DNA of 64,000 bases, from assembly GCA_002314855.1 (NCBI GenBank), contig DCHQ01000039.1, positions 70,726 through 134,725 on the forward strand, given 5' to 3'. A model generated the notes under the pieces. The model did no database searches. It was not told the DNA's origin and was given only the letters and a program-made list of their open reading frames with translations. A program made the position numbers and the translations under genes. Shown here one piece after another: positions 56,691 through 61,452 of the stretch. Positions within the stretch are counted from its first letter, which is position 1. The number at the start of each line of letters is the position of its first letter. The stretch is from Lachnospiraceae bacterium UBA1748. Lineage in GTDB: Bacteria; Bacillota; Clostridia; Lachnospirales; Lachnospiraceae.

Positions 56691-56849
56691 GTTGGGAGAA
56701 TAATTTTACGCATTTTTCTAGGAATATTGAGTCGGCATTTTCCTTCTTTTAGTATTAGTGATAAAGATGCTAAAGGCCTCGTTGACGACGCATTTACTAG
56801 TGCTACAATTGAGCTAGACTTATTATTTTGCATGAAAAGGGGGATTTTT

Positions 56850-57446
56850 ATGGAGGATGAGAGAATAATTAATGCAGAGCGTTTTTCGAAAATATGGTGG
56901 CAGTCAAGATATGATGCTCATATGACTCAGGAAAAGCTGGCCCTTGGTCTTGGCGTGTCGCGTAAGACTATACAGAACTGGGAGAAAGGAATCAGCTCAC
57001 CGACACTTTTTGAAAGTATGGAATGGTTTCGGATACTTGGACTTAATCCAATGCCTTATTATATGGCATATCTTTTTCCAGAAGACGTTGGAGATATAAA
57101 AGGCAGTGATGGAGACGATAGGATAGAAAATGCGCTTTCTGTATTAGTTGATCAGCTGCCTGTTTCTGCGAAAAGACAGCTTTTATATATTTTATTTGGT
57201 AATCATGGAAGCTCGCCAACAGCCGTGCTTAATCTAATGAATGCCCATCTTCAGTGTCCGCTTAGAGACCGTATAAGTCACGCAGTGCATATTGCTGAGA
57301 ATTATGAGCTTAATGAGGCTATGGGATGCATAGTAAGACCTGATAATATTAGACCTGACGGGCAGCTTTTGCATGAATCCATAGAGTCGGCTAAGGAAGC
57401 AGTTATTAATGGAAAGAAAGGATATGTTAATCCTCAAGCTGTATAG
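56850..57446 (+). CDS. XRE-family HTH protein with uncharacterised C-terminal domain
   Basis: MTQEKLALGLGVSRKTIQNWEKGISSP HTH. ATG 56850 follows AAAGGGGG. Confidence 0.85.
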   Translation: MEDERIINAERFSKIWWQSRYDAHMTQEKLALGLGVSRKTIQNWEKGISSPTLFESMEWFRILGLNPMPYYMAYLFPEDVGDIKGSDGDDRIENALSVLVDQLPVSAKRQLLYILFGNHGSSPTAVLNLMNAHLQCPLRDRISHAVHIAENYELNEAMGCIVRPDNIRPDGQLLHESIESAKEAVINGKKGYVNPQAV

Positions 57447-57570
57447 CTATCATAATTGTAACCGAATATTATTCGTGGTATCATAAGGTATCAGTTGGGC
57501 GTAATTGTGTTTGTTTTTGTGAGAATGATGTGAGTGTTATTGCGTCAATTTTCACATTCGAGGTATTTGT

Positions 57571-58350
57571 ATGGATGTAAAAAACATGTCACAATTATCA
57601 AAGCGTTTGGTTGCAGAGCCTGATGACTATATGCATAGTCTTCGAACCAATTTATATATGTATATTGGTGAGAAAGATATTACTCTGCAGCAAATATCTG
57701 ATGAGGCTGATATTCCTATCAGTACTCTCAAAACTCTATGTTACGGTGATGCCAAGGATTGCCGTATATCTACAGTCATTAAACTGGCAAGAGTATTCCA
57801 CGTTAGTGTAGATGAATTAATTGGTGCAGGGACTATAACTAGTCAGACCTGCGAGTCGCTTCAACTTATGAGAACGCTTCCTGAGAGTTTTACGTATTTT
57901 GTCAGGTGGATTATCAGGTTTTATAGAGATATGCTTATAGCTAATCCGGTAAAAGAAAAAGCGGTAGAAGTTATGAAGGCAAGGTGCAGTGGCGATGGCA
58001 ATCTGATAGTGACGAGTGATATGGAGGTGTCAGATATATCAGATTATGCACCAGAGGTTCGTACCAAGATTTATATGGGGATTAAAATTCCTTGCGGAAA
58101 CTATGAACCATATTACTTTAGTGGTGACATTCTTTATGTTGCACATGATAGAAGGCCGAGGGAAGATGAAGCTGTTGTAGTGTGTATTGCTGGCTGCATG
58201 TGGATATTGAAGTCTAGAAGAGAAGTGATTTCTAGTGACGATAAGCGAGTGATTACCAGATACTATACGCTTCGCGATGACAAATATTTTGCCTCAGGTG
58301 ATGACATAGACAGTGTGATTGGCTATGTTGTGAAGGTTCGAAGAGGCTAA
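57571..58350 (+). CDS. XRE-family HTH protein with S24/LexA-like beta-rich C-terminus
   Basis: ITLQQISDEADIPISTLKTL...KLARVFHVSVDELIG HTH. C-terminal YEPYYFSGDILYV...VIGYV. Confidence 0.8.
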   Translation: MDVKNMSQLSKRLVAEPDDYMHSLRTNLYMYIGEKDITLQQISDEADIPISTLKTLCYGDAKDCRISTVIKLARVFHVSVDELIGAGTITSQTCESLQLMRTLPESFTYFVRWIIRFYRDMLIANPVKEKAVEVMKARCSGDGNLIVTSDMEVSDISDYAPEVRTKIYMGIKIPCGNYEPYYFSGDILYVAHDRRPREDEAVVVCIAGCMWILKSRREVISSDDKRVITRYYTLRDDKYFASGDDIDSVIGYVVKVRRG

Positions 58351-60126: not shown

Positions 60127-60318
60127 TAAGCATATGATAGATGTGAAATGGGAACTGGCATAGATTTTGAAATAGACAAGTAATTAGTTTTTTGCAAAGA
60201 ATAGTATGTTAAAAAGGACAAAGAATTTTAAACTAACAGTATAATGTTTTTTTATAAATAGTACGATATAATGAAGTACTGTGAAAGATTGTGTTATTGT
60301 ATATTACGGAGGTGGAAT

Positions 60319-60591
60319 ATGGAACCAATGTATTTGACAATCCAGCCAGTAGCTACTGGACAACATATCAAGGAAATGCTTTGTGACAATGGCTATACTG
60401 TGAAAGATATTCAAAATGCCATGGGATTTGAAAATCCGCAGGCCATTTACAAATGGATTTCTGGTAAGTCATTACCAAGTATCGACAACTTTATAATACT
60501 AAGCAGATTGCTGCATACAAGTATAGAAGATATCCTCGTCATTGACGGGGATATTGTTATTTTAGGGAAGTTTAAACTGATGGTTGAATGA
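60319..60591 (+). CDS. Small XRE/Cro-like HTH regulator
   Basis: TVKDIQNAMGFENPQAIYKWISGKSLPSIDN..ILSRLL.TSIEDIL. ATG 60319 follows GGAGGT. Confidence 0.88.
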   Translation: MEPMYLTIQPVATGQHIKEMLCDNGYTVKDIQNAMGFENPQAIYKWISGKSLPSIDNFIILSRLLHTSIEDILVIDGDIVILGKFKLMVE

Positions 60592-60680
60592 CAAGGAGTG
60601 ATACGTGATTTATTATGTTTATAGAACGAAGAGATAAATATTGGGTGCTCTCAAATGAGGGGAGCAGAGAGGAGACAATA

Positions 60681-61193
60681 ATGCAGACAATGACATCAGC
60701 ATATGCTAATAAGATGCTTAAAAACTTAGAAGAAACTAAGACATACTACGTTAATAAGGAAGTTTCGTCATGTACTTACGTGGCGAGCGTCAATGAGGAG
60801 CCAGTTATACCTGAGTACGACTACAAAGAAGTGGCCGATACAATTGCGGAGCTTGATGAGAAGATTGCCATCATTAAGCATGCAATTAATCTTCATAATG
60901 CTACTGCTAAGGTGCAGGTAGGCAGTGATGAAATGAGCATCGACACAGTACTTATTAAGATGGCACAGCTTAATAAAAGAAAGGCAGTACTTGATACAAT
61001 GCGTAAGCAGCTTCCTAAGGCGAGAGAGGAGCATGCATACTCGGCTAGAAATGCTGTACCAGAATACAGATATATTAATTATGATCTGGATCTGGTAAAG
61101 AAGGAGTATGAAGATGTATCAAAGAAAATTATGGATATGCAGATGGCTCTGGACAAGTTCAATCAGACTGTAGAGTTTGAAGTGGAAATCTAG
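60681..61193 (+). CDS. Coiled-coil protein, DIP1984/DUF6847-like (170 aa)
   Basis: GAGGAG RBS. All-helical, with IKHAINLHNAT, MSIDTVL and terminal LDKFNQTVEF segments resembling my recollection of the DIP1984 family pattern (INxxN...IQxxNWxxxL). Confidence 0.6.
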   Translation: MQTMTSAYANKMLKNLEETKTYYVNKEVSSCTYVASVNEEPVIPEYDYKEVADTIAELDEKIAIIKHAINLHNATAKVQVGSDEMSIDTVLIKMAQLNKRKAVLDTMRKQLPKAREEHAYSARNAVPEYRYINYDLDLVKKEYEDVSKKIMDMQMALDKFNQTVEFEVEI

Positions 61194-61253
61194 CCTAGGG
61201 CCAGGCATCCATTACTTTCCGTATAAGACTTCTAATTTTTTTGTGGACTAGAA

Positions 61254-61327
61254 GTTATTGTTTATAGTTAAGGCTTATCTGTTATTTCGTCATTTGTTAT
61301 CTGTTTTTGTTTATTGATAGGTTATTC
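61254..61327 (+). repeat. Degenerate ~7-nt-period array, consensus near (G/T)TTAT(T/C)(T/G)
   Basis: Unit cores start at 61255, 61262, 61268, 61275, 61282, 61290, 61297, 61304, 61311 and 61322. Confidence 0.75.
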
Positions 61328-61424
61328 AGAGGATTTAATTAACAGATGTCTTATAGAAAACCTGCAGGAAACTGCGTGCGGAGGTTCGGTTACAAGCACA
61401 TTTTCTTCATTTTAACAGACTAAG

Positions 61425-61452
61425 GGCATTCGCTTATGGCGGATGCTTTTTT
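61425..61452 (+). terminator. Rho-independent terminator
   Basis: GCATTCGC-ttatg-GCGGATGC plus TTTTTT. Confidence 0.8.

Follow-up and report, generated by a model that had tools for sequence, protein, structure and literature searches.

In the 64,000-nucleotide (nt) stretch of Lachnospiraceae bacterium UBA1748 that was analyzed here (assembly GCA_002314855.1, contig DCHQ01000039.1, positions 70,726 to 134,725 of the forward strand; termed the window), a gene for a 170-residue protein at positions 60681-61193 of the + strand is followed by a structured RNA on the same strand, which we term type B and which has a full extent of 181 nt (61219-61399). The gene and its double-pseudoknot RNA constitute a two-part cassette, and this RNA-protein pairing is undescribed as far as searches of Rfam and the literature reach. 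Judged by comparison of homologous loci, the RNA is conserved and its core is knotted by two pseudoknots, which goes beyond the stem and helices that had been noticed in a preliminary description of this DNA. Its limits are based on a covariance model, on covariation, and on the ends of RNA contigs at 61383, 61397, and 61399. As the RNA is conserved behind the gene in gut bacteria and large phages, and as a second RNA occurs in distant relatives, the protein family is likely part of an undescribed protein-RNA particle.

The plan shared downstream of homologous genes reads, from 5' to 3', CCG, P1, a repeat loop, P1', RAAA, ACCU, a variable P2, P3, AGGU, CGG, UU, and P3'. On the + strand of the window, CCG (61219-61221) is the predicted 5' strand of pseudoknot X with 61387-61389 as partner, and P1, the long stem of the preliminary description, is located at 61222-61229 (TATAAGAC) and 61348-61355 (GTCTTATA). 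The RAAA junction and ACCU, the predicted 5' strand of pseudoknot Y with 61382-61385 as partner, together occupy 61356-61363. Of the elements noted earlier, the GAAA hairpin is present as P2 (61364-61375), which is variable and missing in some homologs, and the GTGC/GCAC helix as P3 (GUGC/GCAC, 61376-61399), whose loop holds AGGU (61382-61385), CGG (61387-61389), and UU (61390-61391). As the minimum-energy fold of the window's own sequence has only modest stability (z -2.35) and lacks the long stem, the case for the RNA rests on comparison.

Among 71 distinct anchored rows, pairs 1-8 of P1 were kept, in the form of several pair types, in 67-71 rows, pseudoknot Y (ACCU/AGGU) was paired in 71, 71, 71, and 67 rows, and pseudoknot X (CCG/CGG) in 71, 71, and 69 rows. 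Because P1 was picked by best pairing and motif anchors were used, these paired fractions are inflated, and it is the changes of pair type that count as evidence: in pseudoknot Y, C-G is replaced by U-A in 24 rows and A-U by G-C in 4 rows, and the third pair of pseudoknot X occurs as G-C, U-A, C-G, and G-U. RNAalifold recovered P3 alone from alignment A2; as MAFFT had offset some 5' ends by one base there, the pair count was moved to the structure-blind alignment A8, consisting of 28 sequences that were picked because they are similar in length and their P1 starts with U. In A8, 17 of 23 pairs changed on both sides and 93% of the cells were paired, in comparison to 30-44% with slid partners, and 0/500 shuffles reached any of the measures. 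Seven of the eight P1 pairs change on both sides, all four P3 pairs are compensatory, and repeated joint changes on the two sides of every tested pair were seen along a protein tree with 73 tips. The long stem, for which a covariation test had been proposed in the preliminary description, is found among the covarying helices. The core also holds invariant nucleotides, and the positions J5, Yb1, and T2 covary as a group from A-U-U to G-C-C (4/71 rows, two changes in the tree), which suggests a base triple. G-U pairs and the GNRA and UUCG loops point to an RNA encoded on the + strand. The GGUUCGG of the window was also considered as a T-loop and rejected, as its bases covary as pseudoknot strands. 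No Rfam family exceeded the threshold at the window RNA, nor at the 17 loci or the 12 loci checked; by E-value, only chance-level matches were obtained.

The repeat loop contains a tract of 10-11 GUU-type units with a period of about 7 nt (61254-61326, + strand). The number of about ten periodic units that had been proposed for this region was right, with 11 units in the window starting at 61254, 61260, 61267, 61274, 61281, 61289, 61296, 61303, 61309, 61316, and 61321 (spacing 5-8 nt), but the core of the units is GUU(A/C/U) and not the TTAT suggested before. GTT pairs at a lag of 6-8 occur four times in the window versus 0.55 times in shuffles, with 0/2000 shuffles reaching four, and the pooled number of such pairs is 315 versus 35.6 in shuffles (maximum 52). 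Over 74 loci, the GTT spacings peak at 6-7, 13-14, 20-21, 27-28, 35, and 42, so that the 7-nt period is kept across homologous loci. The units retain a position-specific identity, with GUUCA landmarks that are mostly 48-49 nt apart and central GUUAU units between them. RNAalifold found zero consensus pairs inside the tract. Conservation in sequence together with the lack of consensus pairs is what one would predict for a strand that is bound by protein.

Gene and RNA were found together regardless of which of the two the search started from. A search of species genomes gave 80 loci, mostly from Lachnospiraceae, with proteins that are 53-81% identical, and the covariance model R1 matched an RNA 3' of 78 of these 80 genes; of the two misses, L026 breaks off 106 nt behind the stop codon and L080 matches the gene only in part. 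Cultured carriers of the cassette include Blautia schinkii and Eubacterium ramulus (L020 and L043). When the search started from the RNA, 12 of 151 family genomes matched, and in 12/12, including the source genome, the gene was directly upstream; without the source genome, these numbers are 11 hits in 150 genomes and 11/11. The type B RNA is also found 3' of phage homologs with 33-49% protein identity, often among tRNA genes. Among 23 distant bacterial and phage loci, 17 of which are viral contigs, some of them 110-240 kb long, R1 scored 18; the missed loci L356, L357, L361, and L362 show the motif when read by eye, and L351 does not. At L351 (1921-2150), where the homolog is more divergent, the gene precedes repeats of the GTTACAA/GTTATT type that are accompanied by neither of the two known cores and may represent a third RNA class. 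A protein profile search gave 1033 clusters at 50% identity. The cassette is patchily distributed, with 8/399 class genomes and 1/401 phylum genomes. A degenerate core pattern that was searched in viral contigs matched 80 loci, none of which had a gene of the homolog alignment of the window protein (A1) or of the canonical DIP1984 alignment (A4), and these were taken as chance matches.

The structure model of the 170-residue protein is of high quality (predicted local distance difference test, pLDDT, 92) and contains six short strands, so that the protein is not all-helical as had been stated. Its assignment to DIP1984/DUF6847 (NF038048, PF20935) held at the level of the fold: Foldseek matched it to PDB 3KDQ with an E-value of 3.2e-4 and a template modeling (TM) score of 0.64, and VIA gave a Z of 13.4 with a root-mean-square deviation of 3.3 over 151 residues, the next row having a Z of 8.6. 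Formal membership did not hold, as the scores of 18.6 for Pfam DUF6847 (cut-off 27 bits) and 22.3 for NCBIfam DIP1984 (cut-off 70 bits) are both too low. The identity to this family is 14-16%, a profile comparison with canonical members was weak (4% probability), and searches of PDB sequences with the window protein (P0001) or A1 gave nothing significant, whereas the canonical alignment A4 matches 3KDQ by sequence with an E-value of 3e-48. Fold matches are also present in large phages and giant viruses. A match to the PHROGs category "tail fiber" (E 8.7e-7) was rejected as coiled-coil likeness. With respect to assembly, a four-copy prediction scored 0.77 against 0.02 for the best control, with runs agreeing in at least 89% of the contacts and a pLDDT of at least 84; of 30 solved pairs, 20 attained the mark for self-association, as did 1 of 23 single chains. 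This supports the earlier idea of an oligomer but not that of a ring, as the predicted interface is that of a symmetric, two-fold dimer, which may stem from a memory of 3KDQ. At eight positions, K or R is found in 70% or more of the 81 homologs.

Canonical members of the DIP1984/DUF6847 family, which share the fold, likewise have a repeat-bearing RNA 3' of the gene, and this RNA has a different core, as R1 matches 0/39 canonical loci. Canonical DUF6847 genes above the cut-off were found in 15/301 phylum genomes and also in metagenomes, and the second RNA follows them in Bacillota, one cyanobacterium, one actinomycete, and Acinetobacter, in the latter without the 3' G-rich part. Among 95 distinct loci with enough DNA, the 3' anchor was present in 78 and both anchors in 70. 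The pairs of two stacked helices are formed in 59-70 of these 70 and vary in type, and a third helix crosses them; a T-arm is present in 48/70 and a D-arm-like hairpin in 41/70. The tract before CUACC has a length of 42-44 nt in 61/62 and is less clearly periodic (lags 6-8 and 14). No Rfam match was obtained for the second RNA. A kink-turn was considered and rejected, as the tandem G-A register breaks the helix and a plain 5-bp register pairs in 63-69/70. At the loci L087-L113 and L137-L222 (e.g., L197 and L207), the second RNA is about 230 nt long, with crossing helices, a GNCGA-like motif, and a 3' GUGAGGGUGGG. Tandem canonical cassettes about 2 kb apart occur at L089/L108 and L090/L107, where the RNA of the second copy lacks the 3' G-rich segment.

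Canonical relatives are present on 372 plasmid records, 343 of which are from Acinetobacter. The "septicolysin" gene at L110 (303-764; A. baumannii plasmid NZ_CP027124.1) is a DIP1984 gene with a second RNA lacking the 3' G-rich segment, and the septicolysin primer given in PMC3358182 matches L110 exactly. Septicolysin-like genes have also been listed for Malassezia and for termite gut symbionts in the literature.

The plasmid location and the cytolysin label bring up an explanation as an RNA-antitoxin module, in which the free protein would be toxic, for example by oligomerizing at a membrane, and would be sequestered by the repeats until RNA loss on infection or plasmid loss releases it. The stand-alone and patchy cassette, with its few carriers in class and family genomes, fits this explanation, as do the gene that is almost never found without the RNA and the MazF/PemK genes near two phage loci. 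A likeness to type III toxin-antitoxin systems (ToxIN, CptIN, TenpIN) can also be seen in the mobile, patchy, two-part cassette of protein and repeat RNA with pseudoknots. However, in type III systems the toxin gene is preceded by pseudoknots repeated in tandem, whereas here one RNA lies downstream and is built of 7-nt units that are not themselves pseudoknotted. An RNase fold is not apparent in the window protein, whose best fold match is 3KDQ, although an unlisted family may have escaped the fold search; no nuclease or known pore-former was found among its best fold matches, no match in Pfam pointed to an endoribonuclease toxin, and PADLOC has no model for it. In PMC3358182, the gene is called "septicolysin-like" and the role of septicolysin is stated as unknown, with no activity test in the available part of that text. 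We regard a toxin neutralized by its RNA as unlikely. This explanation has the binding step in common with the protein-RNA particle that we favor; the alternatives considered here partly overlap with one another and with that particle.

Transcription of the region, which had been expected, agrees with contigs from RNA libraries that cover the RNA, although such contigs can hold DNA and show no strand. Five RNA runs hold small shares of the sequence. The contigs X2, X3, and X4 from two studies span 61121-61383, 61144-61397, and 61183-61399, connect the end of the open reading frame (ORF) to the RNA, and stop at or near P3' without loose ends, whereas runs of unrecorded type continue past this point. 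This hints weakly at a transcript that contains the end of the ORF and terminates at P3'. No RNA contig covers the ORF's 5' part, from which nothing can be concluded.

A fourth contig, X1, from a third study (depth 3.6), ends at 61218, the base directly before CCG, as would be seen with a self-cleaving core similar to that of glmS that cuts at 61218/61219, so that the repeat RNA would be set free from the mRNA and could then undergo RtcB-type ligation. The strand order X-P1-P1'-Y-P3-Y'-X'-P3' corresponds to that of the glmS core, which likewise has a double pseudoknot that begins with a strand at the 5' edge. For glmS, a double pseudoknot with peripheral cleavage is described in PMC8495972. 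The invariant core nucleotides, the three-way covariation of J5/Yb1/T2, and an RtcB gene near 6/80 loci are also in line with such a ribozyme. Contigs X2, X3, and X4 nevertheless cross 61218/61219, the RNA matches no Rfam ribozyme and has no sequence match to glmS, the core of the canonical-family RNA is not the same, and the type B RNA sits 3' of an unrelated gene and is not a glmS leader. Taken together, self-cleavage appears rather improbable.

The link between ORF end and RNA in the contigs would likewise be seen if the RNA were a cis-acting 3' untranslated region whose sole role is to tune how stable its mRNA is, the protein exerting feedback through repeat binding. The position of the RNA, which begins 6-139 nt past the stop codon and before the terminator, is compatible with this. 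Such a role would leave the doubly knotted RNA of 181 nt, the second class with its tRNA-like arms, and the retention of a cassette that would target nothing but itself unexplained, and we give it the smallest chance of the explanations considered.

We slightly favor a ribonucleoprotein in which protein dimers are arranged along the repeats and the knotted core closes and protects the RNA, and which likely functions in RNA damage or in conflict with phages, either as a scaffold or as a decoy. Gene and RNA would be produced as a single transcript from the sigma-70 promoter, switched by an optional helix-turn-helix (HTH) protein, and dimers would bind the unpaired 7-nt repeats, a step that we consider probable. 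One repeat per subunit may be read, corresponding to about ten in type B and about six in the canonical class, and the knotted core may keep the repeat loop closed and shield the RNA ends. Akin to Y RNA with Rsr, the particle could then work alongside RNA-repair enzymes and tRNA arrays, serving as a scaffold or as a decoy for nucleases; even if the binding is granted, this role in RNA damage or phage conflict is somewhat less than an even bet.

The neighborhoods in question are given here as raw counts, without background control and with related contigs included: RtcB is near 6/80 type B loci, tRNA genes are near 11/20 viral loci, and 80 canonical metagenome loci have tRNA genes (28), Rsr/TROVE (6), RNA ligase (6), RtcR (4), and RtcB (2) nearby. 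Several points weigh against the proposed particle. RtcB is lacking in 74/80 type B loci, most loci have no RNA-repair neighbor, and queries for RtcB, TROVE, and RNA ligase found no match in the source genome (77% complete). With 23 K+R vs. 29 D+E, the protein has a net acidic composition, it has no known RNA-binding fold, and its two-fold symmetric interface offers no obvious way of stepping along a directional repeat. Single sequences are able to fold the tract via G-U pairs, the viral canonical gene L217 shows no RNA, and the RNA-library contigs reveal neither the strand nor the true ends and can contain DNA.

Periodic single-stranded repeats are read one per subunit by TRAP, Hfq/Sm rings, and viral nucleoproteins, and this is the likeness that we propose for the ribonucleoprotein. 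The folds of all of these are different, though, and in the present case a symmetric dimer instead of a ring is predicted and the repeats lie within a dedicated knotted RNA. Rsr (Ro60) with Y RNA or YrlA is similar in that a protein gene adjoins its own noncoding RNA in bacteria and phages. In contrast to that system, the window protein has no match to TROVE in Pfam, and the type B RNA has no tRNA-like arms and no Rfam match; Y RNAs are not known to have a 7-nt array. The canonical-family RNA shares the D- and T-arm-like hairpins and the GNCGA-like 5' motif, which are YrlA features according to PMC4201824, and Rsr, RtcB, and RtcR are encoded near some loci.

In the accessible parts of the literature on DIP1984, DUF6847, 3KDQ, and septicolysin (including PMC10889530, 10.1101/2023.09.04.556232, PMC5390826, and PMC3358182), neither RNA is described, with subscription papers and supplementary motif lists being outside the scope of this search. 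The cassette gives a cognate RNA to a widespread protein family of unknown function, adds two classes of noncoding RNA that are supported by covariation and absent from Rfam 15, and casts doubt on the cytolysin label "septicolysin" that Acinetobacter plasmids carry in the hundreds. A protein assembly whose size is set by the repeat number of an RNA would, if true, be a new design, and the core is a candidate ribozyme as well. In the widest view, for which we see even chances, the whole DIP1984/"septicolysin" superfamily of bacteria, plasmids, large phages, and perhaps giant viruses would be the protein half of an unrecognized class of ribonucleoproteins that acts in host-phage RNA-damage conflict. 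Its knotted RNA would count subunits by 7-nt repeats and would exist with at least two unrelated cores, one glmS-like and possibly self-cleaving, the other mimicking tRNA.

With respect to the locus, the XRE-family HTH gene (60319-60591, + strand; Pfam HTH_3, E 1.8e-8), the sigma-70-type promoter ATGACA-17-TATTAT (60588-60616, + strand), the 170-residue ORF, and the intrinsic terminator (61422-61450, + strand) all lie where they had been placed in the preliminary description. The unusually long distance from stop codon to terminator was also borne out, as it is 231 nt here and 12-110 nt for the other 12 terminators of the window scan, 11 of which are within 47 nt of a stop. The promoter has the same form in 47/75 homologous loci, and sites of this kind are not in excess in the window (12 vs. 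12.0 in shuffles).

The HTH gene is an accessory regulator and not a core part as had been assumed, as it is directly upstream in only 36/76 loci; it is present as a single copy in the source genome. A palindromic box, TTAAAC-N5-GT(A/T)NAA (60228-60244, no strand assigned), lies 5' of the HTH gene and is its likely operator, and a box in this position was also seen in 18 of the 36 HTH-bearing loci. A second box (60572-60588, no strand assigned) abuts the -35 element, and a palindrome at this element occurs in 31/36 loci with an HTH gene upstream versus 7/39 without; as the second box overlaps the end of the HTH coding region, this evidence is partly confounded. The HTH protein may accordingly be expected to bind the palindromes. 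Both copies of the palindrome are present in the window and are among its 11 distinct places in the source genome, where the operator sites elsewhere revealed no clear regulon.

Further genes were observed near the cassettes. Two small unannotated families without Pfam match are located 3' of the cassette in 10 and 6 of the loci L001-L080 (clusters c2 and c4). In the phages L355, L356, and L366, genes with an MrpR N-terminal domain lie upstream of the cassette, two of them with MazF/PemK, and L354 has a WYL gene. In L083, a viral contig of 118 kb, the cassette lies amid tRNA genes with TerD, PspA-like, LemA, PTH2, and RNA ligase genes nearby. The window itself encodes two more HTH proteins at 56727-58350, which have uncharacterized C-terminal parts (239 and 259 residues).
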